The notes under the pieces were generated by a model. That model did no database searches, was not told the origin of the DNA, and was given only the letters and a program-made list of their open reading frames with translations. DNA of 43,689 nt, taken from IMG/VR virus record IMGVR_UViG_3300045988_038444, positions 1 to 43,689 of that record. The stretch is one strand, 5' to 3'. This DNA is from a virus (Duplodnaviria; Heunggongvirae; Uroviricota; Caudoviricetes). The position numbers were made by a program, and so were the translations under genes. This document shows, piece after piece, positions 3,402 through 30,137 of the stretch (the stretch's first letter is position 1; each line of letters starts with the position of its first letter).

Positions 3402-3744
3402 ACTCTGTTACATTGCCGGGCCTTATCGTGCTGATTGTGCGCTTAAAACATCCCGTAACGTGTCGCGCGCTGAACAGGCAGGTAAACGACTTGCTTTACA
3501 ACGTCCGGGGTGGTTCCCGGTTATCCCTCACAAGAACACCGAATTGTGGGACTTTGACGGCGGTTTACGCAATATACAACCCGAATACTACTTGTCAGGC
3601 ACATTAGAAGTTATGCGCCGTTGTGATGCCGTTCTGGTACTTCCTGATTATCGTCGTTCGTCCGGGACTATTGCGGAAATTGCAGAAGCTGAACGTCTGG
3701 GTATTCCTGTGTATTACAGTGTGGAGAGTATCCCACATGGTTGA
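3394..3744 (+). CDS. nucleoside 2-deoxyribosyltransferase-like / DUF4406-like protein
   Basis: MIKLCYIAGPYR...CDAVLVLPDYRRSSGTIAEIAEAERLGIPVY resembles that fold family (from memory). ATG 3394 follows AGGAAA. The track start at 3364 is upstream of the RBS. Confidence 0.45.
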   Translation: MIKLCYIAGPYRADCALKTSRNVSRAEQAGKRLALQRPGWFPVIPHKNTELWDFDGGLRNIQPEYYLSGTLEVMRRCDAVLVLPDYRRSSGTIAEIAEAERLGIPVYYSVESIPHG

Positions 3745-4516
3745 TGTTAAGTTATTTAATCAAGATTGTTTGTTCATGATGAACTTCATTACTGAAAAAT
3801 CTATTGATTTAATTCTTACAGATCCTCCGTATGGTACAACTGCTTGCAAATGGGATTCGATAATAGATTTAGATTTAATGTGGTCAAATTTAAATCGAAT
3901 CATTACGGATAAAGGGGCAATCGTTCTTACGGCAACACAACCATTTGCAAGTATTTTAGTAAATTCAAACATCAAAATGTTTAAATACGATTGGGTGTGG
4001 AATAAATCAAAACGAACTGATTTTGTAAGAGCAAAACTAAAACCAATGGGTGGTCACGAAAGCGTTTTGGTTTTCAGTAAAGGTTCTGTTGCGAATGGTG
4101 CATCTTCAATGATGAACTATTACCCACAAGGTTTGAAACGTATTAATAAAGTAGCTAAAAACGGCGGCGGTGGTTCTGGTTTTTTGGGTCGTAATGGTGA
4201 AAATTTAGGACCAAATAACAAGCTACACAAACCTACGTATATTCAAGAATTTACAGGATACCCATGCACTCAATTGAATATTCAGAGTGAGAATAAAACA
4301 GTTCATCCCACGCAAAAACCTGTAGAGTTAATGGAATATCTTATTTTAACTTACACAAAAGAAGGTGATACGGTTTTAGATTTCACAATGGGTAGTGGAA
4401 CAACAGGTGTTGCTGCCGTGAAAACTAATCGTAATTTTATCGGTATAGAGTTAGATAAAGAATATTTCGAAATTGCTAATAAACGTATTAATTTGGCATT
4501 GATGGGTATTTACTAA
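3737..4516 (+). CDS. DNA N6-adenine/N4-cytosine methyltransferase (beta class)
   Basis: DPPYG (motif IV) is near the N-terminus and FTMGSGTTGVAA (motif I) near the C-terminus. ATG 3737 follows GGAGAG and overlaps the upstream stop. Visibly AT-rich. Confidence 0.85.
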   Translation: MVDVKLFNQDCLFMMNFITEKSIDLILTDPPYGTTACKWDSIIDLDLMWSNLNRIITDKGAIVLTATQPFASILVNSNIKMFKYDWVWNKSKRTDFVRAKLKPMGGHESVLVFSKGSVANGASSMMNYYPQGLKRINKVAKNGGGGSGFLGRNGENLGPNNKLHKPTYIQEFTGYPCTQLNIQSENKTVHPTQKPVELMEYLILTYTKEGDTVLDFTMGSGTTGVAAVKTNRNFIGIELDKEYFEIANKRINLALMGIY

Positions 4517-4531
4517 CAAAGAGGATTGCTT

Positions 4532-5845: not shown

Positions 5846-6165
5846 TGCTTACTCCCGGTTTTACGTTGTTCCGCTTTCAAACCTTCAATAACAACTTTCA
5901 GGTCATTTGTTGACTGTGTTAGCTCTTTAACACTGGTGAGGATTTCAGCGTTCTGTGTTGCCTGATATTCAATTTTGATATCATGGACATCTACACGGGA
6001 TTCCACTCGTTTTGCCAGATTGAGCGCCTCGTGCGCATAGGTTTTTGCATCTACAATATCTTTTTCATTAGAATTGATTTGGTTTTGAGTTACCCCGTAA
6101 CCTACCAACCCCGTGGCAACAAATGCTATTATAGGCCAATACCTCAACACTGGGTTATCAGACAT
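5842..6165 (-). CDS. membrane-anchored coiled-coil protein; first gene of the lysis cassette (holin/antiholin candidate)
   Basis: Single N-terminal TMD (YWPIIAFVATGLVGYGV) followed by a coiled coil. Its stop overlaps the endolysin start. Confidence 0.4.
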   Translation of the reverse strand: MSDNPVLRYWPIIAFVATGLVGYGVTQNQINSNEKDIVDAKTYAHEALNLAKRVESRVDVHDIKIEYQATQNAEILTSVKELTQSTNDLKVVIEGLKAEQRKTGSKQ

Positions 6166-6191
6166 TGTTCTACACTCCTGGAGACTTAAAG

Positions 6192-9164
6192 ATGGCTAAC
6201 TGTAACGATTATATCAGTGCTGATGATTTGAAAACAGGCAAACAAGCGATTTTACATATTGAACACGTTGCGAAAAGTCGTGATGCTAACGGTAATCATG
6301 CGTTGGATGTTACCGATACGATCCGTGATCAATCAGTTACCAACAAGACGCTTGATGGTTTAGAAAACCTGTACAATCAGGCTATATCTCAGGTTGGCTA
6401 TATCACAATGGATAGCTTCGAAGATGGCGCGACATTAACATTGCCTAACCAGGTGTTGCGATATAAGTCGACAGGAGAATATTACCGATGGGACGGTGAA
6501 TTTCCTAAAACCGTTTCTTCTGGTTCAACACCTGAAACTGCTGGTGGCGTTGGTCTTGGCGCGTGGGTTAGTGTTGGTGACGCTTCATTAAGAAGCCAGG
6601 TTTCTGACCCTGATGGCGCAACAAAATATCCAGATTTGCAGATCGCAAGATGGAGAGACACATTCGACCCGCGCGGGTGGAATGCAAAAGGTGATGGGGT
6701 CACCGATGACACCTCAGCGCTTAATGGCGTATTAAACGCCGCACCAGTTGGTCAGAAAATTAATGGCAATGGGAAGACATATAAGGTCACATCCCTGCCT
6801 GACATTAGTAGATTCGTCAATACTCGTTTTGTATATGAACGTATTCCTGGTCAGCCTCTTTTTTATGCTTCTGAAGATTTTATCCAGGGACAGTTATTTA
6901 AAATTACAGATACACCGTGGTACAACGCCTGGACGCAGGATAAAACGTTTGTATATGACAATGTCATCTATGCGCCTTTTATGGCTGGAGACCGCCATGG
7001 TGTAAATAACCTCCATGTTGCATGGGTTCGCTCAGGAGATGACGGGAAGACCTGGACAACGCCGGAATGGCTTACAGATTTACATGAAAACCATCCCACA
7101 GTTAACTATCACTGCATGAGTATGGGGGTTGTCAGAAATCGCCTTTTTGCTGTAATTGAGACGCGGACCGTGAGAGGAAATAAACTGCAGGTTGCAGAGT
7201 TGTGGGATCGCCCAATGAGTCGCAGCCTTCGCGTTTATGGTGGTATAACGAAAGCAGCAAATCAGCAAGTCGCTTATATTCGCATTACTGATCACGGATT
7301 ATTTGCTGGTGATTTTGTCAACTTCTCAAACTCTGGTGTTACAGGTGTTACCGGGAATATGACGGTGACTACTGTTATTGATAAAAATACTTTTACAGTT
7401 ACGACGCAAAATACCCAGGATGTGGATCAGAATAACGAGGGTGGATACTGGAGTTTTGGTACATCATTTCACTCGTCACCATGGAGAAAAACCAGTCTTG
7501 GAACTATTCCTTCTTTTGTTGACGGAAGCACTCCTGTTACTGAGATTCACAGTTTTGCGACGATTAGCGATAACAGTTTTGCTGTTGGCTACCATAATGG
7601 TGATATTGGTCCACGCGAGCTTGGGATACTCTATTTCTCTGATGCTTTCGGTTCTCCTGGTAGCTTTGTTCGCAGACGCATACCTGCAGAATATGAGGCG
7701 AATGCATCTGAGCCATGTGTAAAATATTATGATGGCATTCTGTATCTGACGACCAGGGGGACATTAAGTACTCAACCCGGTAGTTCATTGCACAGAAGCT
7801 CTGATTTAGGTATATCATGGAATTCTCTTCGCTTCCCAAATAATGTTCATCACTCAAACCTTCCTTTTGCCAAAGTTGGCGATGAGCTGATTATTTTTGG
7901 CAGTGAGCGCGCATTTGGTGAGTGGGAAGGAGGAGAACCTGATAACCGTTATGCAGGAAACTATCCAAGAACATTTATGACCAGAGTTAACGTCAATGAG
8001 TGGAGTCTGGATAATGTAGAGTGGGTTAATGTTACTGATCAGATTTATCAGGGCGGAATAGTTAACTCTGCGGTTGGTGTTGGTTCAGTTTGTATCAAAG
8101 ACAACTGGCTGTACTACATTTTCGGTGGGGAAGACTTTCTAAACCCATGGAGCATAGGGGATAACAACAAAAAATATCCTTATGTTCACGATGGTCACCC
8201 GGCTGATTTGTATTGTTTCAGGGTGAAAATTAAACAGGAAGAATTTGTTTCAAGGGATTTTGTCTACGGAGCCACTCCTAACAGAACGCTTCCTACTTTT
8301 ATGTCGACGTCAGGCGTGAGGACGGTTCCTGTACCCGTTGATTTCACAGATGATGTTGCCGTCCAGTCACTGACTGTCCATGCAGGTACATCAGGACAAG
8401 TTCGCGCGGAAGTCAAACTTGAGGGTAATTACGCCATTATTGCGAAGAAAGTACCGTCTGATAATGTTACCGCTCAGAGATTAATCGTTAGCGGCGGTGA
8501 AACAACGTCTTCAGCAGATGGTGCAATGATAACGTTGCATGGTTCCGGAAGCAGTACTCCACGTCGCGCGGTATATAACGCACTCGAACATCTTTTTGAG
8601 AACGGAGATGTTAAACCTCATCTTGATAATGTAAATGCTCTTGGTGGGCCTAGCAACCGTTTCACCACTGCATACCTCGGAAGCAACCCTATTGTTACTT
8701 CTAACGGAGAGAAGAAAACGGAGCCGGTAGTTTTTGATGATGCTTTCCTGGATGCCTGGGGTGACGTTCACTACATCATGTACAAGTGGTTAGATGCTAT
8801 TCAACTGAAAGGCAATGATGCTCGTATTCACTTCGGGGTTATTGCTCAGCAAATTCGTGATGTATTCATTGCACATGGTCTGATGGACGAAAACAGTACG
8901 GATTGTCGTTATGCCGTTCTGTGCTATGACAAGTATCCACGGATGACCGATATGGTATTTTCGCACAATGAAATCGTTGAACACACTGACGATGAGGGTA
9001 ATGTCACTACCACGGAAGAACCTGTATACACCGAGGTGGTTATTCACGAAGAGGGTGAGGAATGGGGTGTTCGGCCTGACGGAATTTTCTTTGCTGAAGC
9101 TGCTTATCAGCGAAGAAAACTGGAAAGAATCGAAGCCAGACTTTCTGCTCTTGAACAGAAGTAA
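6192..9164 (+). CDS. tailspike endosialidase (endo-N-acylneuraminidase) with C-terminal intramolecular chaperone domain
   Basis: ATG 6192 follows GGAGA. Asp-boxes SGDDGKTW (7032-7055) and SSDLGISW (7797-7820). The C-terminal ~150 aa (...ARIHFGVIAQQIRDVF...RRKLERIEARLSALEQK) resembles the peptidase S74 chaperone domain of K1F/K1E endosialidases. Confidence 0.85.
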   Translation: MANCNDYISADDLKTGKQAILHIEHVAKSRDANGNHALDVTDTIRDQSVTNKTLDGLENLYNQAISQVGYITMDSFEDGATLTLPNQVLRYKSTGEYYRWDGEFPKTVSSGSTPETAGGVGLGAWVSVGDASLRSQVSDPDGATKYPDLQIARWRDTFDPRGWNAKGDGVTDDTSALNGVLNAAPVGQKINGNGKTYKVTSLPDISRFVNTRFVYERIPGQPLFYASEDFIQGQLFKITDTPWYNAWTQDKTFVYDNVIYAPFMAGDRHGVNNLHVAWVRSGDDGKTWTTPEWLTDLHENHPTVNYHCMSMGVVRNRLFAVIETRTVRGNKLQVAELWDRPMSRSLRVYGGITKAANQQVAYIRITDHGLFAGDFVNFSNSGVTGVTGNMTVTTVIDKNTFTVTTQNTQDVDQNNEGGYWSFGTSFHSSPWRKTSLGTIPSFVDGSTPVTEIHSFATISDNSFAVGYHNGDIGPRELGILYFSDAFGSPGSFVRRRIPAEYEANASEPCVKYYDGILYLTTRGTLSTQPGSSLHRSSDLGISWNSLRFPNNVHHSNLPFAKVGDELIIFGSERAFGEWEGGEPDNRYAGNYPRTFMTRVNVNEWSLDNVEWVNVTDQIYQGGIVNSAVGVGSVCIKDNWLYYIFGGEDFLNPWSIGDNNKKYPYVHDGHPADLYCFRVKIKQEEFVSRDFVYGATPNRTLPTFMSTSGVRTVPVPVDFTDDVAVQSLTVHAGTSGQVRAEVKLEGNYAIIAKKVPSDNVTAQRLIVSGGETTSSADGAMITLHGSGSSTPRRAVYNALEHLFENGDVKPHLDNVNALGGPSNRFTTAYLGSNPIVTSNGEKKTEPVVFDDAFLDAWGDVHYIMYKWLDAIQLKGNDARIHFGVIAQQIRDVFIAHGLMDENSTDCRYAVLCYDKYPRMTDMVFSHNEIVEHTDDEGNVTTTEEPVYTEVVIHEEGEEWGVRPDGIFFAEAAYQRRKLERIEARLSALEQK

Positions 9165-13519: not shown

Positions 13520-16101
13520 TATATTTTCCTGTTCGCATCATAGTTAGACCTGAACGCTTTATTCGTCTGACTGTACGGGTCATTCCATTGTGCCGCTGAT
13601 TGTCGTGGGAATTCTTCACCTATGATAAGCACTACGTCATCCCGTGTTAATCCTTGTTTCACCTGAACACGTTCGCCACCGTAGTTATGAACCTGAATAT
13701 TAGGTGATGAACCACCTTCAGATCCGGGGGTGTATGTCCCACGATTCATTGCTTCCAGAGTGCTACGATAACGACTCGTAGCCTGTTTGGTACTGACAAA
13801 TTCACCATTACTCAAACGTGCGTTTATACTGTCACTCTGACCTGTACCCGGACCTTTAACATAACCACCCGTTGCAAAACCTGTTGCGGCCACAGACTGA
13901 ATGTTACCTAACACGCTTGTCCCGTATGATAAAGCCTGTGCAATGAACGGAATATTCGCCGGGAACGGCAACGCCATAGCCTGACTAACGGCTGTCCACA
14001 GGTTAATACTCGCCTGTGCGATACTAAAGGCTTTAGACAGTGCAAACATCGCTTTATATGCGTTTGATTGCTCACCTTTAGATTGTGCCAGACCAGCAGC
14101 CATTTGACCCAAAAAATCAGCACTGGATTGTAGCAACAAGCTGTAGTTAGCATTTGCAAGATTCATACGGGCTTGTTCCCCGGCCTGTTGAATCTGCGTT
14201 TTCATGTCCTGGTATTGTTGCTCGTTAATTAAATCTTGTTCACGGGCTTGTTGTATGACAGTAAGGCGTTGTGCTTCCTGTTGATTAACCTGATCAACCT
14301 GTGATTGATACGGGTTTAACTCACCCTGTACATCGGTTTGTACCTGTGAAACCTGACCAGCTAACTGTTGCGCCTGCTGTTGACGTTGCAATGCAGCCAC
14401 ATGTGCATCAACAGCGGCACGTTCAGCATCAGTCGCGTCTTTATTCAGTCGTGACTGTGCTTCTGCCTGTTGTGATGCCAGCGTTAACTGTTGACGTACC
14501 TGATATTCTTTCTGATATGTTGCTGTAAGTTGTTCAACAGACGACCCCTGTGTTAAGGCAATCTGAACCTGTTCACGGGCTAACTGAACATCATAATTAC
14601 CAGCATTGATTTTATCCTGAAGCGTTTTCAGGTATTTCTGGTTAGCAGCCTGATTACGTTCCAGTTCTTTCTGTGCACGTTTAGCCGCAGATGCTTCAGC
14701 ACTCGCTGATTTCTTCTGGTTTTTTTGATTTTCTTTATATTCTGCCTGTTGTTTCAACAACGCAGCATAGTCTGCAATCTGTTCCTTAGTTGCTTTATTA
14801 CCCAGTTTCTGACTTGCTGCCAGTTCATAGTTACCGTCAGCAAGCGCCTGGGTGTAGGTGATCTGTTCTTTCAGGTTTTTAATCTGTTTTTGTGCTTTCG
14901 CGTCTGATGCATTTGTCCCTTTTATAGAAATAGGTTTTGTAGCATCACGGTTTTTTTTAGCTTGTTCGTATCCAGCCGCAGATGCTTTAACAAATCTATC
15001 AACCTGGTCATTGTACGCTTTTGCATTATTTACATCATCGTTTGACCAGACCAGATCAGCAAGGGATGCCCCAGTAGCACCTGGTTGTAACTTAGATATT
15101 ACGCCAGCTATTGACCACAATTTATCAGCAGTTGTTGAATCATCGCCTAATTTATTGATGAAACCTGTAAGTGTATCAATAGCGTTTACAGCAAGATTTG
15201 ATGCTCCAGTCACGTCATTCATGCTTGCAACAAGCGTGGCTAACGATACAGATAACGAATTCGTAGCTTGATCTAAAGACCGTGGCAATTTGCTAAATTC
15301 TTCATCAACATTTTGCGTTTGACGAATAATAGCATTCAATGCTTGTTCCGCTGTGAGTTCACCATCCAGCATTTGCTGACGTAACTCACCCATTGAAACA
15401 CCTAAACCAGCAGCCATCTGTCTTGCCAGTTCTGGCATCTGTTCAACAATGCTGTTAAATTCTTCCGCACGAACTACACCAGATGAAATTGACTGACCAA
15501 ACTGACGTAATGCGTTAGACATTTCTTCAGCAGATGAACTACCAACACGACCTATTTTTTGAAGTGTTTCAGTTAATCGTAATATCTGATCGTTTGTTGC
15601 GCCGCTATCCTTTAATGACGATGATAAGGTTTCCCATAAACGTTCAGTATCAGCAAGACCACCACCTGTTTTAGAGGCAATATCCGCGAGTGTTTGAAAT
15701 GTTTGTTCGGCTGATGATGTACTCCCGGTCAATCTTGCAATACGAGCTTCGAGTTGATTAGCTGCATCACCCGCAACAATAAACGCTTTTCCTAACTCAA
15801 TAGCAGAAGACACCGCACCTATTGCCATAAAACCACGAACGGCGTTTGTTGCAAGATTTACGCCAGATGCCATCGACTTTAAAGATGATGTAGCGTTACC
15901 AGTATTTGACGCCATTACTTGTGCAGATTTTGCAGCTTGCTGTTCACTTTTTGATAAAGTGTTTGCCGCTTGTGCAGCAGATTTTGCAGAATTAGCTGTT
16001 TGGTCTAACTGGTTATTAAGGCTGTTAAGATTTCTGTCAGCGTTACCAGTGTCTATTTTTATATCAATCGGATACTGTGCCATTGTGGTTAACCTTTTCA
16101 C
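13519..16101 (-). CDS. tail tape measure protein
   Basis: 860 aa, Ala/Gln-rich with long predicted helices. Lies between the G/GT chaperones and the minor tail proteins. Confidence 0.85.
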   Translation of the reverse strand: MKRLTTMAQYPIDIKIDTGNADRNLNSLNNQLDQTANSAKSAAQAANTLSKSEQQAAKSAQVMASNTGNATSSLKSMASGVNLATNAVRGFMAIGAVSSAIELGKAFIVAGDAANQLEARIARLTGSTSSAEQTFQTLADIASKTGGGLADTERLWETLSSSLKDSGATNDQILRLTETLQKIGRVGSSSAEEMSNALRQFGQSISSGVVRAEEFNSIVEQMPELARQMAAGLGVSMGELRQQMLDGELTAEQALNAIIRQTQNVDEEFSKLPRSLDQATNSLSVSLATLVASMNDVTGASNLAVNAIDTLTGFINKLGDDSTTADKLWSIAGVISKLQPGATGASLADLVWSNDDVNNAKAYNDQVDRFVKASAAGYEQAKKNRDATKPISIKGTNASDAKAQKQIKNLKEQITYTQALADGNYELAASQKLGNKATKEQIADYAALLKQQAEYKENQKNQKKSASAEASAAKRAQKELERNQAANQKYLKTLQDKINAGNYDVQLAREQVQIALTQGSSVEQLTATYQKEYQVRQQLTLASQQAEAQSRLNKDATDAERAAVDAHVAALQRQQQAQQLAGQVSQVQTDVQGELNPYQSQVDQVNQQEAQRLTVIQQAREQDLINEQQYQDMKTQIQQAGEQARMNLANANYSLLLQSSADFLGQMAAGLAQSKGEQSNAYKAMFALSKAFSIAQASINLWTAVSQAMALPFPANIPFIAQALSYGTSVLGNIQSVAATGFATGGYVKGPGTGQSDSINARLSNGEFVSTKQATSRYRSTLEAMNRGTYTPGSEGGSSPNIQVHNYGGERVQVKQGLTRDDVVLIIGEEFPRQSAAQWNDPYSQTNKAFRSNYDANRKI

Positions 16102-16114
16102 GAAGCATATACAC

Positions 16115-16142
16115 AGTTTAACACGGGTCTAAAAAGCGACAA
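16115..16142 (-). promoter_or_regulatory. candidate minus-strand promoter for the tape-measure operon (TTGTCG, 16 nt, TAAACT)
   Basis: Read on the minus strand it sits back-to-back with plus-strand cassette P1. It shares CCCGTGKTAAACT with the terL upstream region. Confidence 0.35.
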
Positions 16143-16145
16143 ACG

Positions 16146-16187
16146 TTTAAAATAATTCTTGACGGATTACACAATGATGTGTAACCT
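16146..16187 (+). promoter_or_regulatory. conserved sigma70 promoter cassette P1
   Basis: TTTAAAATAATTC + TTGACG (16159-16164), 17 nt, TAACCT (16182-16187). Confidence 0.7.
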
Positions 16188-16217
16188 ACAATCAACAAAA
16201 CAACGGAGAGTTACAAA

Positions 16218-16397
16218 ATGGCTACTTTCATCATTCTTTTCTTAATCGCTGCTGTATATCTGATCCCAGCACTCATCGCGATTAACGTTAAACATAAACA
16301 ACAAACAGCAATTATTTTACTTAACATCTTTGCGGGTTGGACATTCGTCGGTTGGTTAGGTGCGTTAATCTGGTCTGTGTTAAAAAGCGACAAATAA
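16218..16397 (+). CDS. small membrane protein, superinfection-immunity (Imm_superinfect)-like
   Basis: 59 aa, just below the track cutoff: MATFIILFLIAAVYLIPALIAINVKHKQQTAIILLNIFAGWTFVGWLGALIWSVLKSDK. It has two TMDs and a GWTxxGWxxALIW signature. RBS is GGAGAG. Confidence 0.65.
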   Translation: MATFIILFLIAAVYLIPALIAINVKHKQQTAIILLNIFAGWTFVGWLGALIWSVLKSDK

Positions 16398-16398
16398 G

Positions 16399-17310
16399 AT
16401 GAGTAGGAAACGTTTAACCACAGAAGAGTTTATCACGCGTGCCCGTGAAGTTCATGGGCACAAATACGATTACTCACTAGTGGAGTATTTGAATTGGCGC
16501 ACACCTGTGAAAATCATCTGTCCTATACATGGAGTGTTTGAACAAATTCCTAATAATCATTTAAAAGGACGCAAGTGTTTATTCTGTGCAGGAAATCAAC
16601 AATCAAATACCAATGAATTTATCACAAGGGGGCGCGAAGTTCATGGGGGTAAGTATGGTTATTCGTTGGTGAAATATAAAGACTCTCGGACCAAAGTGAA
16701 AATCATTTGTCCAATACACGGAATGTTTGAACAACGTCCATATAGTCACTTGCAGCAAAAAGCAGGTTGCCCACAATGTGCTTGGGAACAATTGTCTGAA
16801 CAAAGACGTTTATCCGCCGAAGAATTCATTACTCGTGCTCGCGAAGTTCACGGGGACCGTTACGACTATTCGTTGGTGGAGTATGTTAACAATTCCACCC
16901 CTGTAAAAATTATTTGTTCAGAACACGGTGTGTTTGAACAGACACCGGGCAATCACACATTTATGAAAGCTGGCTGTCCCCAGTGCGCTGAAACAGGTTT
17001 TAATCCGTCAGAACCCGGCACGTTATATGTACTCGCTGATGATAAACAGTATCCCACTCTGATTAAAATTGGTATTACAAACGACTTAAAACAGCGACTA
17101 CGACAACTACAACGACGAACTCCGCATCTTGTGGTTAAACTTGTATCGTATCCGTTCCCACATGGCGCTGACGCTTACAAACTGGAACAAGAGGTACACA
17201 AGGTCTTTCACGAACTTAATGCGCGTCTCAAAGGCTTTGACGGTGCTACAGAGTGGTTTAAATACTCTCCTGCAATCCTCGATTACATAAATGAAAAAGC
17301 CCGGAACTAA
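16399..17310 (+). CDS. T5orf172 (GIY-YIG-related) homing-endonuclease-like protein with three N-terminal zinc-ribbon repeats
   Basis: Three ~60-aa modules (EEFITRAREVHGxxYDYSLVEY...KIICPxHGxFEQxPxxH...GCPQCA). The C-terminus reads GTLYVL...IKIGITNDLKQRLRQL...ATEWF. Confidence 0.75.
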   Translation: MSRKRLTTEEFITRAREVHGHKYDYSLVEYLNWRTPVKIICPIHGVFEQIPNNHLKGRKCLFCAGNQQSNTNEFITRGREVHGGKYGYSLVKYKDSRTKVKIICPIHGMFEQRPYSHLQQKAGCPQCAWEQLSEQRRLSAEEFITRAREVHGDRYDYSLVEYVNNSTPVKIICSEHGVFEQTPGNHTFMKAGCPQCAETGFNPSEPGTLYVLADDKQYPTLIKIGITNDLKQRLRQLQRRTPHLVVKLVSYPFPHGADAYKLEQEVHKVFHELNARLKGFDGATEWFKYSPAILDYINEKARN

Positions 17311-17330
17311 CCGGGCTTATGTTTATTTTT
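17297..17330. terminator. bidirectional hairpin terminator at the end of the endonuclease gene
   Basis: AAGCCCGG-AACTAA-CCGGGCTT with a T-rich tail downstream and an A-run upstream. Confidence 0.55.
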
Positions 17331-18025
17331 CTTCATCTCGACAACACGTGCAGACCGCAATGCTGTTAACAATTTCCATAGGAACTGTACATCAACGTTG
17401 TACACCCGTGCGTAACGTTCACAGGCAACCCAATCACTATTTATCAAATCAAGATAAGCATACCAATAAAAAACAGCATCAGGTCGCAATTCAGGACGTT
17501 TCTGTACAACAACCGGAACAGATATACCACGTGCAGCCGCCCCTTGTGTAACCCAGTCCAGGTCGTCCCCGTCTGTCTTATCGTTCCACAAGAGGAAGTC
17601 GATCAGTTTTTTTCAATCTGTTTTTCCCATTCGTCCTGGAAGAATGCGGAATTAATTGCGAACTGAATAACACGGCTGTAGATCACCTGACCAAAACGTT
17701 CATCACTTAACAATTCAATAGCTTCTTCGACACTGAATGGTTCCGGTTTGTCATCTTCACCAATCAGTTTCCAGTCCAGCATAAGAACGTTAGCCACAAA
17801 CTTAACACCTTCTGGTGTATATTCCTGATTCCACAGTTTTTCAAAGAAGTTTTCAGACAACACACCGTTCTGTTTTACATAGTCCGCGACTGTTACGTTA
17901 TATACCTGGTTAGCGGTGTTCAGGTTCAACACGGTGATACTGAAATTTTCATTTAAAATCAGTTCAGCAGAAGACTTCAGCACCAGTGGAGAAAGTGCTT
18001 TTTTCAGATGGTCAAACTTTGACAT
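17307..18025 (-). CDS. tail assembly chaperone GT fusion via -1 programmed frameshift
   Basis: The G frame reads ...GAA AAA AAC TGA. A slip on A_AAA_AAC (plus coordinates 17612-17606) enters the ORF at 17307-17591, which has no RBS or ATG of its own. Confidence 0.6.
17603..18025 (-). CDS. tail assembly chaperone G
   Basis: 140 aa and acidic. Lies between the major tail and tape measure genes and ends at the slippery site. Confidence 0.7.
   Translation of the reverse strand: MSKFDHLKKALSPLVLKSSAELILNENFSITVLNLNTANQVYNVTVADYVKQNGVLSENFFEKLWNQEYTPEGVKFVANVLMLDWKLIGEDDKPEPFSVEEAIELLSDERFGQVIYSRVIQFAINSAFFQDEWEKQIEKN
17606..17612 (-). promoter_or_regulatory. -1 ribosomal frameshift slippery heptamer A_AAA_AAC
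   Basis: The run of 7 T on the plus strand (17607-17613) is A7 on the minus strand and fits X_XXY_YYZ in the G frame. The stop codon follows immediately. Confidence 0.6.
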
Positions 18026-18133: not shown

Positions 18134-18165
18134 TAACTCAACGAAACGAACTGAGGGTAAGAGGG

Positions 18166-18790
18166 ATGGCGATTATTAACATGGGTTGGCATAGTTCTGT
18201 TTTTGAAGGAAATGTTAAACTCCTGGAAGGGGCATATAGTCCTATCCATCGTAATGATATTGGTGGCGATTACCCACCATCTTATTTTCTATACGAAACT
18301 GATCATGGGTGCTGTATCAAAGAACGTGAACGTAACGGTTACCATGATTCAGATTTTGAAATGTTAATATGGAACCCTGAAACAAAAAAGCGCTTCATGG
18401 TATACATTTGCAACTACCCGTGGTTGGTGTTATCCATGCTATGGTTCACGCCCAGATGCAACACCAGAAGTTTTAGAAGCATATAATATTTATGAACAAC
18501 AGCAAGAGGAAAAACGGCAACGTTATTGCAAAATAAAAAGAGTAAACAAGCAACGCAAACTGAACGCACAGTTTAGATTAATAGTACGTGAATTTGGTGT
18601 TGATCGCGAACAAGTTGAAAAACTTTATAAATTATATCACCCAGATATGTTCCCTGTATTTTGTAAACTTCTTAACAGTAATTTACGTTCTGATTTCCGT
18701 AAAAGTTTACGTAAACAACTAGTTGATTGGTTAAAAGGGAACGGTAAGTACGATAAACCATTTTCACCTAAACAAATTCAGTATTTATGA
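18166..18790 (+). pseudogene. frame-disrupted hypothetical gene (island gene inside the tail module)
   Basis: The frame-1 ORF runs 18166-18486. The +1 frame is open for 141 codons (18368-18790) with protein-like sequence and no start codon until near its end. The two frames overlap around an A6 run at 18384-18389. Confidence 0.6.
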
Positions 18791-20333: not shown

Positions 20334-20759
20334 TTAATATATTTCTTCGTATTCGTAACTAAGTACGACGTTCGTTAAAAACCACGCGTTATCACGACCC
20401 TGATGACGAATATCAACACTCGTGTAAATTAACGGGCGGTCCTGCCAGACACCTTCAAATAATTTTGCAAGCCGATCCGCAATATCAATACTCAAAGTGT
20501 CCATGCCATACTGAGCAGGTGTGCGTACCTGTAAAAAAACGTTTCCTGTTCTTAAACGACGACGACAAACACCTTCCCCACCCAGCGTGGTTATTGTCCA
20601 CGGACCGGGATTGTGTGTCAGAATCAGACCGGGTTTTTCTGTAGTGTCATCAGGGAGTTGACCAGAAGCGATTGTAAATCTGTCAGGCGTAATTTCCACG
20701 GGGAGATTCGCCAGAACGCGATTATAAACAATTCCTGAAACATCTGAGAGTGTCATCAC
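20334..20759 (-). CDS. tail terminator / tail completion protein
   Basis: 141 aa. Lies immediately upstream of the major tail gene. Called on synteny. Confidence 0.45.
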   Translation of the reverse strand: MMTLSDVSGIVYNRVLANLPVEITPDRFTIASGQLPDDTTEKPGLILTHNPGPWTITTLGGEGVCRRRLRTGNVFLQVRTPAQYGMDTLSIDIADRLAKLFEGVWQDRPLIYTSVDIRHQGRDNAWFLTNVVLSYEYEEIY

Positions 20760-21184
20760 TGATTAAACCTCACCATTATTCCGGCTTTTAATATAGCACG
20801 TTCGACAAACCCGGAAGGTGTCTGTGTACTGCTACCACCATTGAGAACCCCAATGTAAGGAACGTTGTTAGTAATATGCAGTTCCTGACCATTAACTTTA
20901 ATACTGCTGATAGTGACTGTATCCTGTTCGATACGTGCTTTACTGGCTTCAACATTACCTGTTGGTGTATCAGGACTATTAGCGGGTTGCCCCTGATCGA
21001 ACCACCAGTTGTTGCTTGCCCAGCCACTCAATATTGGTGTACCATCAGGAGGCTCACTTATGAGTATGTTACGTAGTGTTAAAACATATCTAATGACTTG
21101 ACGATCCGTAAAATCTTGTAAGTCGGCTTTTATGTCTTTAAACACTCCAGTAATACGATTTATATCATTGATTTTGCTAGTCAT
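20756..21184 (-). CDS. neck protein (HK97 gp10-like head-tail joining)
   Basis: The start is taken at MTSKINDIN (ATG 21184). The track start at 21250 would run into the divergent endonuclease gene. Function called on synteny. Confidence 0.45.
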   Translation of the reverse strand: MTSKINDINRITGVFKDIKADLQDFTDRQVIRYVLTLRNILISEPPDGTPILSGWASNNWWFDQGQPANSPDTPTGNVEASKARIEQDTVTISSIKVNGQELHITNNVPYIGVLNGGSSTQTPSGFVERAILKAGIMVRFNQ

Positions 21185-21206
21185 TGACAAACCTAAAGGT
21201 AGAAAA

Positions 21207-22103
21207 ATGGGCGGTAAAAGACTAACCAAAGAACAACTAGAGCATAACATAAAAGATATTTGTCAATCAAAAAATTACAAATTTATAAAATGGAAAGACG
21301 GGTTTAAAAACAAAGAATCACGAATTATTTTATCTTGTGTTACACACGGGGAATGGGACACTAAATGTTATCATTTTTTGAATGGTTCTGGTTGTCCGAT
21401 CTGTGGTGGAACACGAACCACAAAAGGGTTAAGAATTGCACAGATTAAAGACAGTTTAACAAATTCTAAATCAAAGTTTATTAAATTTAAAACTAATTTT
21501 CAAAATGGAAATTCTGTTTGTTTGCTGAGCTGTATTGATCATGGTGGATGGGAGACAACAGTCAATAGACTAATCTTTACATCTGTTGATTGCCCGTTGT
21601 GTATAACGAATAGACAGAAAACTAAACAAGAACGAGAAATTGAAATAACAAATAGATGTAAAGAAACAGGGTTGTTTTTTAATAAGATATTCGACGAACA
21701 TCCGACATGGAAATCTAAAATATCATTAAAGTGTTCAACGCATGGTGATTTTGTTACAACAATTAATTCTTTTCTTAGTAAACAAAAAGGTTGTCCAAAC
21801 TGTAGTAAAACAGGGTTTAAAGCTGGTAAGTATGCAACACTTTATGTCTTGCGGTCCACATGCGGTCGTTACGTTAAAATAGGTATCAGTAATTGTGTAG
21901 AGCAAAGAATTAATACACTTCGTAGAAAAACACCATTTGATTTTCAAGTAATAGAAAAATTGAATGGACACGGGGCAACCATTCGTTCACTTGAAAAAGA
22001 TTTTCATTCTCATTTTGAATCTGCAGGATTAACCGGGTTCGATGGTTGTACAGAGTGGTTAAAATGGAATCCAAATATAACCACTCTGATACGGATGTTA
22101 TAG
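21207..22103 (+). CDS. T5orf172 (GIY-YIG-related) homing-endonuclease-like protein, second family member
   Basis: Three Cys/His modules (CVTHGEW...GCPICGG; CIDHGGW...DCPLCI; CSTHGDF...GCPNCS). The C-terminus reads ATLYVL...VKIGISNCVEQRINTL...CTEWLKW. Strongly AT-rich. Sits antisense between two neck genes. Confidence 0.75.
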   Translation: MGGKRLTKEQLEHNIKDICQSKNYKFIKWKDGFKNKESRIILSCVTHGEWDTKCYHFLNGSGCPICGGTRTTKGLRIAQIKDSLTNSKSKFIKFKTNFQNGNSVCLLSCIDHGGWETTVNRLIFTSVDCPLCITNRQKTKQEREIEITNRCKETGLFFNKIFDEHPTWKSKISLKCSTHGDFVTTINSFLSKQKGCPNCSKTGFKAGKYATLYVLRSTCGRYVKIGISNCVEQRINTLRRKTPFDFQVIEKLNGHGATIRSLEKDFHSHFESAGLTGFDGCTEWLKWNPNITTLIRML

Positions 22104-22481
22104 TTATACCGCTCCAACAGGATGAATAAATGCCATATCATCCCCTAACAATCGTGGGTTTTGACGATCAAGAAGGCGATATTCTTTACCACGTTCATCA
22201 ACCACAACATCACCCCGATCAGGAACAAATCGTGGTTCAAAACTCTGACTATCCATAATTACCATCGTTGTGGTTATTCTGGTCATAGTAGTCGGATCCC
22301 ACTTTTCTAATGGGTAAATATAACCACGACACGTATGCGATTCAGTAACGGTTGTACCCGGTAATGTAGGATTAGACGGGTTGGGAACTGTTATCACACG
22401 TTTTACCGTCAAATCCTCACCTACTTCAGCAAGTGCACGAGTAACACCTTTCAGGACACTTTGACGTTTGTCTGCCATCAC
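22104..22481 (-). CDS. head closure / head-tail adaptor protein
   Basis: 125 aa. Follows the connector-like gene. Called on synteny. Confidence 0.45.
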   Translation of the reverse strand: MMADKRQSVLKGVTRALAEVGEDLTVKRVITVPNPSNPTLPGTTVTESHTCRGYIYPLEKWDPTTMTRITTTMVIMDSQSFEPRFVPDRGDVVVDERGKEYRLLDRQNPRLLGDDMAFIHPVGAV

Positions 22482-22888
22482 CGTTCACCCTCGTTAAGTG
22501 CACGACCACCGCTTTCAAGTGTTACAGGTGGGTTGTCGAACTGACCACGTTGAATAGCAGGTTGCATACCAGCGCCAGTTAATGTAGCTCCACCAACACC
22601 CATAAAACTACCTAACAAACCGCCACCTGAATCAGCGCCAGTATTAATACGTAAAATAAAATCTTTTTTAAGTTTATTCCAGGCGTCTGCTGACTGACTA
22701 CTGCTGAGTGAGATCGGACCTACTTTAATGTCAGTATCGTTGCTGGCAATAGACGCCATATAATCACAGAGAGCGACGCAAATACTGAGAGGATTTGTAT
22801 AACCGTTGTCAATGTACCACTGAATTTGTTCATCAGTAACATCAGGGACACTGATCAAATAACGAATACCTTCAACTGTAATAGCCAT
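22478..22888 (-). CDS. head-tail connector (gp6-like) protein
   Basis: The start is taken at MAITVEGIRY (ATG 22888, RBS AGGTGA). The track start at 23062 would translate through a terminator hairpin. Confidence 0.5.
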   Translation of the reverse strand: MAITVEGIRYLISVPDVTDEQIQWYIDNGYTNPLSICVALCDYMASIASNDTDIKVGPISLSSSQSADAWNKLKKDFILRINTGADSGGGLLGSFMGVGGATLTGAGMQPAIQRGQFDNPPVTLESGGRALNEGER

Positions 22889-22927
22889 GTGATCACCTGT
22901 GAGAAATGTTTTCGTTATATTAGCACG

Positions 22928-22953
22928 AAAAAAAGCCGTCTTAAACAGACGGC
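22928..22953 (-). terminator. strong intrinsic terminator ending the non-coding segment (minus strand)
   Basis: On the minus strand: GCCGTCT-GTTTA-AGACGGC followed by T7. Confidence 0.75.
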
Positions 22954-23459
22954 AAATGGCTCTGGGTGATAATGAGGGTTTTACATAACTGGTCATCCAC
23001 ACCTGACGTCCCAACATACCCCTATGCGTGACACGTGAATAACCAGTTATGTAAAACGACACGCAGTTCAGGATGTTTCACAACATGCTTTACCCACGAT
23101 TTGCGGCTTTCCCGCCAGCAAGATAAGGATCACCTCCTTATCAGCGAGTGTTTGGGTTGTGGCGGTTGGAATCGAACCAACTCCCATCGGTGCGATTCCA
23201 ACCGCAGTACGCGCAGCGGTCCGCTACATGACTAGTATTTTCACGGTCGCCTATCTGCTAGCTCGCCATTGAGCTTCACCACAACGGAAAGAGCACTGGA
23301 ACTTGGGCTGAGTATTACCGCATGTCTTTCGACTTCGAACCAAGGCTGACATTACCCAATGCTCTTACCTGTTATGTGCCGGTTACGTTTATCCGGCGTC
23401 TTTCGACCGATTAAGTGATAGTGTCTGCTATGCAGTTCTGTCACTGACTTAACAATAGG
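22954..23459 (-). ncRNA. candidate large structured non-coding RNA (function unknown)
   Basis: About 500 nt with no credible ORF on either strand. Contains many perfect hairpins, GAAA loops and a tRNA-like module, and is bounded by a gene stop and a terminator. See findings. Confidence 0.35.
23158..23283 (-). other. tRNA-like module (non-canonical, 126 nt)
   Basis: On the minus strand: acceptor TGTGGTG/CGCCACA (7 bp, one G-U), D-arm GCTC-AATGGC-GAGC, T-arm GTTGG-TTCGATT-CCAAC. There are 78 nt and no 5-bp/7-nt anticodon arm between the D-arm and the T-arm. Confidence 0.3.
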
Positions 23460-23813
23460 TCAAGAATAGTTATATGTCAAGCCTTGTGATTCACACCATT
23501 TAGCAGCGGCACTTTTACTACTAAACGATTCTGAATTCATCGGCATACCCATAACATAAACATTATAGGTTTTTGGCGCATCACGTCGGATTTCAGCCGC
23601 AGTGGTTGATGCCGATTCTTCGGTTGCTACAGTCACTGGTTCTTCAACGGTCGCAGTAGCTGGTTCAATGTGGCGCATACGCACAAGGGCGTTTAAAACA
23701 GCCGGGGTAGCTTTTGATGTTGATACTTTATCGCCAGCGGACATCTGTTTACCGTTCCACAGCATCGGACGGGTGAAAACATATTTCAGTGACGGATCAT
23801 ATGAATTACGCAT
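23460..23813 (-). CDS. hypothetical protein (117 aa)
   Basis: The start is taken at MRNSYDP (ATG 23813, RBS GAGG). The track start at 23867 runs through the capsid-gene terminator. Confidence 0.55.
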   Translation of the reverse strand: MRNSYDPSLKYVFTRPMLWNGKQMSAGDKVSTSKATPAVLNALVRMRHIEPATATVEEPVTVATEESASTTAAEIRRDAPKTYNVYVMGMPMNSESFSSKSAAAKWCESQGLTYNYS

Positions 23814-23828
23814 GATTTTAACCTCATG

Positions 23829-23855
23829 AAAAAAGGGGCAGCATAAGCCACCCCT
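23829..23855 (-). terminator. intrinsic terminator after the major capsid gene (minus strand)
   Basis: On the minus strand: AGGGGTGGC-TTAT-GCTGCCCCT followed by a T-run. Confidence 0.65.
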
Positions 23856-23875
23856 TAATGATATCACAGTTGTTA

Positions 23876-26568: not shown

Positions 26569-26978
26569 TATTCCACATCCTCATAATATGCAGTTCCACC
26601 GATACTATATCCCGTATATTCACCAGTCTGAAACTTTTTCAAAACTTCGTCATCAGTTATCAACGTACCAACAATGACGCCTGTCTGATCCAGTTTATCA
26701 ACCAGTCCAAAACTTGCTGCAATGTCTTCGGTCATCGGGAACGCAAACACAACTTTCCCAACAGGTTGTTGATTATGCATATTATCCATGATGCGCTGAT
26801 CAGAATTCATGAAGTCCAACCATGCTTTCAGAGTGACATCCTCGGGAAATTGCTCGTTGTCCGTGTCTGTGTAAATTTCTAACTGACCTGTCTCCTGATT
26901 ACGTTTTTTACAGATACTACCCCAACCGAATACCATACGTAGTGAGTTGTCAACCTTATTAACTTTTACGTTAATCAC
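26568..26978 (-). CDS. XkdF-like prohead protease domain protein
   Basis: ...FGWGSI...TDTDNEQFPED...HNQQPVGKVV...GEYTGYSIGG resembles the XkdF/S78-type family (from memory). Confidence 0.45.
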   Translation of the reverse strand: MINVKVNKVDNSLRMVFGWGSICKKRNQETGQLEIYTDTDNEQFPEDVTLKAWLDFMNSDQRIMDNMHNQQPVGKVVFAFPMTEDIAASFGLVDKLDQTGVIVGTLITDDEVLKKFQTGEYTGYSIGGTAYYEDVE

Positions 26979-27385
26979 GGGGATTGTCCTCGTATTGTTT
27001 CAACATGACTAAATTCTAACATTTCGGATGAATAATTGCACTGGTGATACACGCTGTTTACAACGTTACCGAATATCTCAGAAAGATTCTTGATCGGTTC
27101 AACAGCAGTCGTTACTGGTTCAACAGCAGTCGTTACTGGTTCAACAGTAGTCGTTACCGGTTCAACAGTAGTCGTTACCGGTTCAACAGCAGTCGTTACT
27201 GGTTCAACAGCGTCCAGATGTTCAGCGACAACCTGGAAAAACACTGTGTTAGTTTCACGGTCAATAATAACCACTGTGCTGGAACTATCTTCAACAATGC
27301 TGAATGAGTAGTCGTAACGATCACCGTGAATTTTACGGGCGCGACGAATGAATTCGTCTGTAGCAACTCTGATGTTCGGATCCAT
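26975..27385 (-). CDS. repeat-containing protein with a degenerate endonuclease-type N-terminal module
   Basis: The start is taken at MDPNIRV (RBS AAGAAGGG). ATDEFIRRARKIHGDRYDYSFSIVED parallels EEFITRAREVHGHKYDYSLVEY of 16399-17310, but the Cys/His ligands are lost. This is followed by (VEPVTTA/T)x5. Confidence 0.5.
   Translation of the reverse strand: MDPNIRVATDEFIRRARKIHGDRYDYSFSIVEDSSSTVVIIDRETNTVFFQVVAEHLDAVEPVTTAVEPVTTTVEPVTTTVEPVTTAVEPVTTAVEPIKNLSEIFGNVVNSVYHQCNYSSEMLEFSHVETIRGQSP
27096..27213. repeat. 21-bp tandem repeat, about 5.6 copies
   Basis: ggttcaacagcagtcgttact-type units start at 27096, 27117, 27138, 27159 and 27180, with a partial unit at 27201. In frame on the minus strand. 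Confidence 0.95.
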
Positions 27386-27530
27386 ACATTCAACCCTTCT
27401 TGTTCTCTTAACCACAGGGTAGTTGTGTCGGTGTAATCCGTCAAGAATTATTTTGCGTATAGATTCATGGGAAGTATGCGACCCCCTATACCTTTTAAAC
27501 CTCTCCTACTTGCAGCAACTTTTACTACTT

Positions 27531-28881: not shown

Positions 28882-29111
28882 ATGGGAATGAAACAAATAT
28901 GGGATGGTAAAACCTTCCTTCTGTTGGTTGTGAAGTATTGATCCATCTGGCAAGCATTAACAAGTGGGTGGCACGAACTGTTCAGGGTTATGAAATATGG
29001 CCTTCTGTTTATGAAAATGATACGGCACATCACAGGGTAAACATAAAATTTGAAGATAATGTTCGTCTGTTATGTGATGTGCGACCTCTTGACTGGCGTG
29101 AACCTGATTAA
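28882..29111 (+). pseudogene. small gene with an apparent -1 frame disruption
   Basis: Strong RBS AGGAG, 8 nt, then ATG 28882. The frame stops after 19 aa. The -1 frame is open from 28911 to TAA 29109-29111 and reads NLPSVGCEVLIHLASINKWVARTVQGYEIW...LDWREPD. An A4 run lies at 28909-28912. Confidence 0.45.
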
Positions 29112-29114
29112 CTT

Positions 29115-29175
29115 GGTTCGATGGCTGTACTGAGTGGTTAAAATGGAATCCAAATATAACCACTCTAATACGTAT
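29115..29175 (+). pseudogene. 61-bp fossil of the 3' end of a T5orf172 endonuclease gene
   Basis: Matches 22036-22096 at 57 of 61 positions, would encode FDGCTEWLKWNPNITTLIR, and has stop codons just upstream in that frame. Confidence 0.75.
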
Positions 29176-29177
29176 AA

Positions 29178-30137
29178 TCACGGGATAACATTTATATCTT
29201 GAGGGAGAGAATAAGCAACCCGGCAACGACAATTAATCACGTTCGCAGCACTACCGTTAGGATCACGAGGAAACATAAGTGGTCCTAACGGCGTTGAAAA
29301 CGGTCTGTCCATTGGTATCCAGCCGTTCGTTTCACCTGTAGAAATATGCGCATCACGTGTCCGACCATCTTTTCTATATAACCAGCGCTTCAGCAATTCA
29401 TTACTAATAGCCCCGGTAATCTGTCCCTGACGTATTGCCTGATCCTGACCAACTGATACAGCACGAAGTGATTCAGTACGCGCTATTGTCTCTGTACGCT
29501 GTTTTACATAACGCAAGCGTGTCTGTTCGATTATCTGGTCAATCTTCACCTGTGATAGTTTCCCGGCACTTACAGCGTTCTTCGCACTGTCTGTAACAGT
29601 GGTCAGACTGTTCACATAACCTGCTTCACCTTTTTCCAGTGCTGATCGTAGACGTTGAACCGTCATTTCCTGCCGTGTGGTTAACCCTATTGATGATCGA
29701 AAATCACGGGCTATCTGACGCGGATTTCGTCCGGTTACCATACCCTGGTTAACTGCAATCTGAACAGCTTTGACTGTTTCGTCACTGACTTCACGGATCA
29801 GTTGTCCGACATAGTTGTTGATATATGTGCTGACCTGTGGGGTGACCAGACTGAACACAACCGGACCTGTTACAGCCGCTTTCGGTAGAACCTGAACGAC
29901 TACACGACCTGATTCAGCGATCGCATCTTCAATAACCGGGCGCAACTGTGCACTAAGTTCATCAGGAAGTGTTTCAAGAATGGGGAGTAACCCGGCAATA
30001 CCTTGGGTTTCAATAATGTATTCCAGGTTGGCTAACGACTCACTACGACGCACGTTTTCCCACACAACATCAAGTGCTTCGCGAATGCGAGCGTCATACT
30101 TGTCTGAAATATCCGGGTATGGGTCTTTAGTAGCCAT
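29178..30137 (-). CDS. head morphogenesis protein (Mu F / SPP1 gp7 family)
   Basis: 319 aa. The C-terminal ...TRDAH...NCRCRV motif is typical of the family. Confidence 0.8.
   Translation of the reverse strand: MATKDPYPDISDKYDARIREALDVVWENVRRSESLANLEYIIETQGIAGLLPILETLPDELSAQLRPVIEDAIAESGRVVVQVLPKAAVTGPVVFSLVTPQVSTYINNYVGQLIREVSDETVKAVQIAVNQGMVTGRNPRQIARDFRSSIGLTTRQEMTVQRLRSALEKGEAGYVNSLTTVTDSAKNAVSAGKLSQVKIDQIIEQTRLRYVKQRTETIARTESLRAVSVGQDQAIRQGQITGAISNELLKRWLYRKDGRTRDAHISTGETNGWIPMDRPFSTPLGPLMFPRDPNGSAANVINCRCRVAYSLPQDINVIP

Follow-up and report, generated by a model that had tools for sequence, protein, structure and literature searches.

The virus record IMGVR_UViG_3300045988_038444 (IMG/VR; 43,689 nucleotides (nt), the whole stretch analysed and called the window here) is a genome segment of a Sasha/9NA-like (Sashavirus-like) siphovirus, with virion genes on the minus strand. 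Wedged between these structural genes are two plus-strand genes, gene A between the neck genes Neck1 and Hc1, and gene B between the tail assembly chaperone genes G/GT and the tape measure gene, that probably are free-standing homing endonuclease genes (HEGs). A sequence-only reading had proposed this arrangement, crediting each gene with three Cys/His modules followed by a T5orf172 domain. The protein architecture is confirmed by Pfam and PHROG profiles and by a 22-sequence alignment, and the antisense placement of both genes by PHROG annotation of the minus-strand neighbours, which also include a tail terminator gene. The two genes and their domains are as follows:

21207-22103, plus strand: gene A, putative free-standing homing endonuclease of 298 amino acids (aa) (open reading frame (ORF), profile matches, alignment)
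21207-21416, 21417-21614 and 21615-21821, plus strand: gene A zinc (Zn) modules (CapR homology)
21822-22100, plus strand: gene A T5orf172/GIY-YIG domain (profiles, model)
16399-17310, plus strand: gene B, putative homing endonuclease of 303 aa (ORF, profile matches)
16399-16596, 16597-16797 and 16798-16998, plus strand: gene B DUF723 Zn modules (Pfam)
16999-17307, plus strand: gene B T5orf172 domain (Pfam)

The mechanical ORF of gene A opens at 21132; the start is placed at 21207, since all orthologs begin with MGGKRL behind an AAGGT Shine-Dalgarno sequence. The N-terminal modules of gene A match the CapR homology domain (PF21817) three times (2.4e-18, 66.5 bits), and the protein also matches MUG113 (PF13455; 2.6e-8, 34.8 bits, curated cutoff 22.3) and T5orf172 (PF10544; 5.2e-5, 24.1 bits, curated cutoff 20). 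In the case of gene B, the corresponding matches are to DUF723, again three times (3.9e-17, 62.4 bits), to T5orf172 (4.4e-13, 50.0 bits) and to MUG113 (47.3 bits). The profile search that the earlier reading had called for thus places the nuclease and repeat domains above curated cutoffs in both genes, and both proteins match phrog_681, annotated 'endonuclease' (1.2e-63 for gene A, 5.4e-85 for gene B). Between the two proteins, identity is 27%.

Across the 22-sequence alignment, which includes gene B, nine Cys in three C...CxxC sets are invariant, and genes A and B have one His in each module, giving three units of the pattern C-x2-H...C-x2-C. The other invariant columns are Y213, L215, K224, G226, I227, N229, R234, E263, H267 and T282-E283-W284; these hold the catalytic-core residues Y213 (the GIY tyrosine), R234 and E283 (the metal-binding glutamate). 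The C-terminal domain of both genes models as a GIY-YIG alpha/beta nuclease fold, and each Zn module is modelled as a helix and a three-stranded sheet. A Foldseek search of the whole model against the PDB, dominated by the tandem modules, returned no match at E<=0.001, with SLX1 appearing only at E~0.65-1.3, and a profile search of PDB sequences found no solved T5orf172 relative, only chance Zn-finger matches. Alignment of the family profile to the I-TevI catalytic domain (PDB 1LN0) with hhalign gave a sensible register at a non-significant E=0.21; I-TevI differs from genes A and B in being intron-encoded, and in having the opposite domain order and a different DNA-binding domain. No NCBIfam family was found for the endonuclease proteins.

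Ratios of nonsynonymous to synonymous substitution rates (dN/dS) among gene A orthologs are 0.11-0.32, in the Zn part and the nuclease part alike, indicating that gene A is under purifying selection. Such selection across Zn modules and nuclease domain also fits an explanation in which the two genes have been domesticated or neo-functionalised, acting as CapR- or I-TevI-like operon repressors or as Odn-like nucleases against competing phages or satellites, and do not home. Co-option within the family has precedent in CapR and Odn, on the accounts given in PMC8096241, PMC8263062 and PMC10448857. CapR, from the Vibrio cholerae satellite PLE, is the protein to whose homology domain the gene A modules match; its conserved Cys pairs are needed for DNA binding, and sequence-specific DNA binding by such modules has been shown for CapR itself only (PMC8096241). 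However, CapR is a small stand-alone repressor consisting of the DNA-binding module without a nuclease domain, whereas the T5orf172 core is complete in genes A and B, and a CapR-like repressor that has lost its nuclease was accordingly rejected as a description of them. Odn, the origin-directed nuclease of phage ICP1, has a T5orf172 domain whose activity depends on a conserved glutamate (PMC8263062, as cited in PMC10448857) that is invariant here (E283). In contrast to genes A and B, Odn is described there as carrying a RepA_N DNA-binding domain and targeting a satellite origin, and not as a homing element. Also in favour of domestication is a weak similarity, at the level of domains, to PDC-S57 (PADLOC), a candidate defence family; membership of that family was rejected, the matches being partial and confined to the nuclease domain (8.5e-4 to 1.5e-6, covering ~35-80 of 212-221 positions).

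Occupied and empty alleles at site A

The features of site A, the gap between Hc1 and Neck1, are listed here:

22104-22481, minus strand: head closure gene Hc1 (phrog_161, 1.4e-13), its stop abutting that of gene A
20756-21184, minus strand: Neck1/tail-completion gene (phrog_169, 2.8e-28; alignment to relatives)
21023-21184, minus strand: Neck1 5' tract, the first 162 nt, donor-like (9NA-like) (alignment to Bas82 and 9NA, GC content)
21185-21206, no strand assigned: 22-base pair (bp) spacer supplied by the insert, the near-palindrome ACCTAAAGGT with back-to-back Shine-Dalgarno sequences (read from sequence)
21023-22111, no strand assigned: probable imported patch, made up of the Neck1 5' tract, spacer, gene A and the last Hc1 codons and stop (patch versus flank identity)

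Over aligned parts, the window is 91-95% identical to Bas82, BDX09P1, AVIO78A, PDP46, PJ16, 536P12 and Sasha, and 81% to 9NA. Comparison with related genomes had been proposed as a check, and it yielded endonuclease-minus alleles and defined insertion points at both sites A and B. Gene A is absent from all 15 of the related isolate genomes of the phage collection used for its presence/absence. In Sashaviruses with an empty site, the Hc1 stop and the Neck1 start are one base apart (TGA-N-ATG), and in 9NA and Klebsiella-type relatives they overlap as TAATG; at these empty sites, Neck1 is translationally coupled to Hc1. The occupied site has 919 bp (21185-22103) in place of 1 nt, with base-precise junctions, and the Neck1 start now lies 919 bp from the Hc1 stop. 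The 22-bp gap and the abutting stops reported for this insert are exact (21185-21206 for the gap; 22101-22103 for the gene A TAG and 22104-22106 for the Hc1 stop), and the Hc1 C-terminus reads GAV* here and GAA* otherwise.

On each strand, the spacer ACCTAAAGGT carries an AGGT that precedes a start codon by 6 nt: the Neck1 ATG in the case of the minus strand, the gene A ATG in that of the plus strand. Thus, Neck1 would gain a ribosome-binding site of its own from the insert, replacing the lost coupling to Hc1. The spacer is kept in gene A orthologs, and it is a perfect palindrome, ACCTATAGGT, in two uncultured contigs, L012 and L015. The uncultured contigs compared were L012, L014 and L015 (9NA-like and gene A-positive), L017 and L022 (carrying the same chimera as the window, from two other samples), and L018 (carrying gene B).

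Foreign sequence extends beyond gene A on one side. Relative to Bas82, Neck1 has 46 differences in the first 162 alignment columns (28%) and then a single one over the following 270 nt, the remainder of Neck1 being ~99.6% identical to relatives. Within the tract, Neck1 nt 64-134 are 100% identical to 9NA, and the guanine-plus-cytosine (GC) content is 35.2%, versus 44.2% in the rest of Neck1. On the Hc1 side of the insert only the last Hc1 codons differ. The 162-nt tract is probably a co-conversion tract imported with gene A. Gene A itself has a GC content of 33.0%, versus a window mean of 42.9% (standard deviation 3.2%, in 897-bp segments), and is the lowest in the window; 0.4% of the 897-bp segments are as low, every one overlapping the gene A locus. 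The reported AT-richness relative to the flanks therefore stands for gene A, and for gene A alone, gene B being compositionally normal at 42.4% GC. Fixation in all relatives, a normal composition and the lack of a nuclease domain were the outcomes that the sequence-only reading had named as contrary to it, and gene A shows the opposite of each, being missing from the 15 isolates, lowest in GC and matched by T5orf172.

The patch flanks are 98-100% identical to Bas82, whereas the patch itself is 80-96% identical to L012, L014 and L015. Gene A orthologs of 84, 82, 73 and 63% aa identity lie at the same site, behind the same 22-bp spacer, in uncultured 9NA-like contigs, and site A is occupied in one of the eight assessable IMG/VR loci. 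When the window is compared with L017, 3 of 1081 bp are mismatched within the patch and 58 of 2501 bp in the flanks (Fisher p=1.5e-6); the block of low divergence spans 21015-22107, matching the extent of the patch. Against L022, the counts are 1 in 1081 and 67 in 4000, again a significant difference, with a near-identical block spanning 20937-23196; this comparison delimits the element less sharply because the identical block runs 1.1 kb past the patch. By these comparisons the imported patch appears to be younger than its flanks, and gene A to be a recent invader of a Sashavirus backbone that came from a 9NA-like lineage occupied at the same Hc1/Neck1 site.

The extension of the L022 block well past the patch also fits an explanation in which generic homologous or illegitimate recombination moved genes A and B around as ordinary morons, with the nuclease playing no role in their spread. 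In addition, phages of this family have many unrelated, variable blocks of small antisense genes interleaved in the structural module, so that antisense orientation alone is not diagnostic of genes A and B. However, the divergent tracts are one-sided and directly adjoin the gene, and the same site and the same 22-bp spacer recur across lineages whose flanks differ by 15-30%, both of which count against this explanation.

The earlier reading also had late transcripts crossing gene A in antisense. Two annotated terminators in Sasha bracket a group of five genes that runs from gp38 to the major tail protein. No intrinsic terminator (a hairpin with a U-tract) was found inside gene A on either strand, and four minus-strand promoter candidates within gene A are not conserved among orthologs. 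Since the insert splits a translationally coupled pair and gene A has no terminator, it is plausible that late transcripts would read through ~0.9 kb of antisense sequence, though at site A only.

The site-B cassette and the tape measure

The second gene lies between G/GT and the tape measure gene, as had been reported, and the features of this site are:

17603-18025 and 17307-17591 (T segment), minus strand: tail assembly chaperone genes G/GT, adjoining gene B
17297-17318, no strand assigned: native bidirectional terminator-like hairpin at the GT stop (a terminator in the Sasha annotation)
16125-17290, no strand assigned: site-B cassette of 1,166 bp (junction alignment with Sasha, AVIO78A and PDP46)
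16218-16397, plus strand: Imm-type superinfection-immunity gene of 59 aa (Pfam Imm_superinfect 3.4e-17, phrog_1039 1.6e-18)
13519-16083/16101, minus strand: tape measure gene, the other neighbour of gene B
14891-16100, minus strand: tape-measure 5' region co-segregating with gene B, an alternative allele of ~1.2 kb (alignment to HEG-less phages)

Besides gene B, the insert at site B contains the Imm-type (T4-Imm-type) gene, overlooked in the earlier reading, on the same strand and 1 nt upstream, and is therefore a two-gene cassette. This cassette takes the place of 14 nt (ATATTATGGTTAAC) that HEG-less phages have between the terminator hairpin of GT and the leader of the tape measure. The hairpin is also present in those phages, and the last five codons of gene B (EKARN*) are read from its antisense strand, with the gene B and GT stops overlapping. 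A native terminator therefore already separates GT from the tape measure at this site, and the cassette sits just past it. Such a terminator gap is typical of moron insertion, a point for the generic recombination outlined above. The linkage of gene B to a superinfection-immunity gene can likewise be counted in favour of domestication; the Imm-type gene accompanies gene B in Sashaviruses and is missing from the gene B-bearing contig L018.

Gene B is present in Bas82, 536P12, BDX09P1 and PJ16, and absent from Sasha, Sergei, Solent, PDP46, AVIO78A and 9NA. The gene is intact in the window, Bas82 and 536P12, has a frameshift within the nuclease domain in BDX09P1, and in PJ16 has one Zn module fewer and is truncated before the TEW motif. 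Gene B thus appears from these alleles to be the older resident, lodged at a natural terminator gap and decaying in some lineages. Decay in two lineages is unexpected of a beneficial gene, as is the rarity of gene A, and both argue against domestication.

Among carriers, identity is only 64-90% in the centre of gene B (16500-17100; synonymous divergence (dS) ~0.8, dN/dS 0.16-0.19), whereas the Imm-type gene and both gene B flanks are 94-99% identical; the Zn-module region would therefore itself be a swapped mosaic segment. Parts of 16500-17100 match the DUF723 repeats of Sasha gp06 at 70-83%. The pattern suggests module swapping between paralogs in the Zn region of gene B.

The start of the adjoining tape measure gene deserves comment, as the mechanical ORF begins at GTG 16101 and the relatives, together with a conserved leader, indicate ATG 16083 (MAQYPIDIK). 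Nothing in HEG-less phages matches 14891-15919, and identity to them over 15900-16100 is 65-79%. Gene B carriers have a tape measure of ~860 aa, HEG-less phages one of ~971 aa: among the 13 genomes with length on record, the short form is found in six of six carriers (the window, Bas82, BDX09P1, 536P12, PJ16 and L018), and the long form in seven of seven non-carriers. It appears that a segment which determines tail length is hitchhiking with the endonuclease cassette.

Other family members and a conserved hairpin

Further members of the family occur elsewhere in related phages. For instance, 9NA gp46 (39% identical to gene B) lies between the tail terminator and the major tail protein genes, PDP46_0032 follows a head-morphogenesis gene, and Sasha gp06 follows TerL. 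The DUF723 repeats of Sasha gp06 are 59% identical to those of gene B, and its C-terminal part has no T5orf172-type match. Including genes A and B, members are found at five different intergenic sites, each time as a complete single gene with base-precise junctions, and all five are antisense to structural genes. Recurrence of this kind, together with a conserved nuclease core under selection, argues further against ordinary morons, and we consider that explanation improbable.

Within the window, a search for further paralogs found only a remnant and a half-module. The remnant (29108-29179, plus strand) is a non-coding, 72-nt 3' end of a third family member, is 87.5% identical in aa to the gene A C-terminus, and abuts the stop of a head-morphogenesis gene (29178-30137, minus strand). 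The alignment block holding it is 96.7% identical in nt to PDP46, which has the full-length PDP46_0032 at this position, and Bas82 has neither gene nor remnant there. From this comparison, the remnant appears to have arisen by deletion of a third T5orf172 gene. The half-module (TDEFIRRARKIHGDRYDYS) is DUF723-like, lacks the Zn ligands, and belongs to a conserved minus-strand ORF (26975-27415) upstream of a prohead-protease-like gene. A VEPVTTA tandem repeat follows it, with 5-6 copies here, 2 in Bas82 and 3 in PDP46.

A deletion remnant raises the question of whether genes A and B are ancestral and have been lost from relatives by repeated precise deletion. In keeping with that explanation, site-A orthologs are deeply diverged (dS 0.6-1.8), and the gene A element must therefore be old in some lineage. 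However, the empty sites of three divergent clades (Sashavirus, 9NA and Klebsiella-type) are tightly coupled and scarless, whereas the known deletion at 29108-29179 left a scar, and gene A and the Neck1 tract stand out as foreign to the Sashavirus backbone in both composition and phylogeny. Ancestry followed by precise loss is accordingly very improbable.

The remnant and gene A share one further feature, which lies in the gene A 3' end:

22051-22088, no strand assigned: perfect 11-bp inverted repeat, CAGAGTGGTTA-N16-TAACCACTCTG, across codons TEWL...ITTL
29108-29179, plus strand: the remnant described above, which keeps the hairpin at 29132-29165

The predicted stability is -18.5 kcal/mol (RNAfold, 40-nt window). 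The hairpin is the most nucleotide-conserved stretch of gene A, holding its three longest invariant runs, and a 9-bp core stem is invariant in five site-A orthologs, two paralogs (45% identical, at the PDP46 site) and the remnant, with substitutions confined to the loop or the stem ends. Degenerate stem codons are invariant in 5/5 cases versus a 38% baseline, a post-hoc comparison (p~0.01) that is suggestive only, and a covariation test is impossible because the stem never varies. No U-tract accompanies the hairpin on either strand, and an Rfam search at a permissive threshold over 15.5-30.5 kb gave only sub-threshold chance matches, none of them for the hairpin. The conservation may reflect protein constraint plus gene conversion. 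That the hairpin is a functional cis element carried by the mobile gene is doubtful, and two roles can be imagined for such an element. As a 3' stem-loop, the hairpin might stabilise or process the convergent transcript of the structural genes, which ends 15-20 nt away, and so compensate for the cost of a split operon; as a shared DNA handle, it might let the mobile gene switch among sites that have nothing in common but the 3' end of a structural gene.

Homing, known systems and other loci

Taken together, the observations favour genes A and B being free-standing HEGs of the T5orf172 branch of the GIY-YIG superfamily, with a probability of roughly 0.75. The locus shows presence/absence polymorphism with precise junctions, donor-like flanks, and the successive states of invasion, decay and loss, and the arrangement originally proposed finds its support in empty sites, a donor-like tract, same-site orthologs, decayed alleles and the remnant. 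For both genes, we infer DNA cleavage, the location of the target, homing, the timing of expression and late read-through. Domestication is the main rival and is judged unlikely; homing accounts better for gene A being rare and gene B decaying, and a donor-like flanking tract with same-site orthologs is what site-specific mobility would leave.

In the homing mechanism envisaged, the three Cys/His Zn modules (of the CapR-homology/DUF723 type) would read a long DNA site, tethered to the C-terminal nuclease. In a mixed infection with a gene-less relative, the enzyme would cut the naive allele near the empty site, and repair from the carrier genome would copy in the gene together with donor sequence on its flanks. 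An allele already occupied would be immune, because the 0.9-1.2 kb insert is proposed to part the two halves of the site. The T4 Seg endonucleases, as summarised in PMC10448857, co-convert flanking markers as they spread in mixed infections, and can cleave away from the insertion point. Cleavage at a distance would explain a one-sided tract, and the one-sided tracts 5' of both genes suggest it here by analogy with T4 SegG. On that analogy, gene A cleavage is predicted within the first ~160 bp of Neck1, and gene B cleavage within the tape-measure 5' region.

Several points weigh against homing. The position of the YIG tyrosine is a lysine, K224, in these proteins. A promoter scan found 22 promoter-like sites versus 17.5 +/- 3.5 in shuffled sequence, none convincing for genes A or B. 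No sampled genome qualifies as the direct donor of the gene A patch, the closest candidates being only 80-96% identical, and the mosaic boundaries could have come from ordinary homologous recombination without a nuclease. Finally, homing of phage T5orf172 HEGs has not been verified experimentally (PMC10448857).

Genes A and B belong to a kind of element that is already known, and no new kind of element is represented. Barth, Dunham and Seed (2023; PMC10448857) described the T5orf172 HEG family, with repeated Zn modules and placement at recombination boundaries. As in the HEGs of ICP1 and other phages treated there, one to several CapR, DUF723 or DUF4379 modules precede the T5orf172 domain, and the genes lie next to essential structural genes, at the boundaries of recombined segments, with variable presence and degenerate alleles. 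Unlike the ICP1 case, the host clade is that of Sasha/9NA-like siphoviruses of Escherichia coli and Salmonella, all copies in this clade are antisense to structural genes, and the junctions, the one-sided 162-nt tract, the donor lineage and the naive allele are resolved to the base. T4 Seg proteins such as SegG, in the account of the same paper, are also encoded by intergenic, intron-less genes of the GIY-YIG superfamily. In Seg proteins an N-terminal GIY-YIG domain is followed by C-terminal DNA binding, whereas in genes A and B the order is reversed, with three tandem Zn modules and lysine in place of the YIG tyrosine.

T5orf172 genes with tandem Zn modules are among the commonest suspected phage homing endonucleases, and the main interest of this locus is as a ready-made system for a first experimental test of T5orf172 homing. 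It represents an unusually complete natural experiment, with an intact gene under selection, base-precise empty targets in Bas82 (BASEL), Sasha and 9NA, a 162-nt conversion tract that predicts where cleavage would fall, and same-site orthologs of 63-84% identity that could help to decipher target specification by three Zn modules. Such elements also appear to reshape structural genes, importing foreign gene ends at site A, and at site B an element can carry a difference of ~110 residues in the tape measure, the protein setting tail length.

Four other loci in the window are of minor interest. Between the major tail protein and chaperone G genes, an antisense block (18159-18785; ORF 18166-18486, plus strand) is ~98.5% identical only to Sasha gp43 (207 aa), and its reading frame is broken in two by an extra A at 18384, pointing to a pseudogene or a sequencing error. 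A variable intergenic block of 50% GC (23160-23450), located between a 194-aa gene (22478-23062) and 23460-23867, is unmatched or partly matched in all relatives. The low-GC block at 3623-4516 (plus strand) was considered as another endonuclease and rejected, as it is an N6/N4 DNA methylase allele (Pfam 3.8e-33), with 3729-4524 having no nt match in the relatives compared. Lastly, the tailspike gene (6165-9164, plus strand), without a match in any of the eight relatives compared, encodes a full endosialidase (End_beta_propel 4e-231, End_tail_spike and a Peptidase_S74 chaperone), which suggests specificity for the K1 polysialic-acid capsule.

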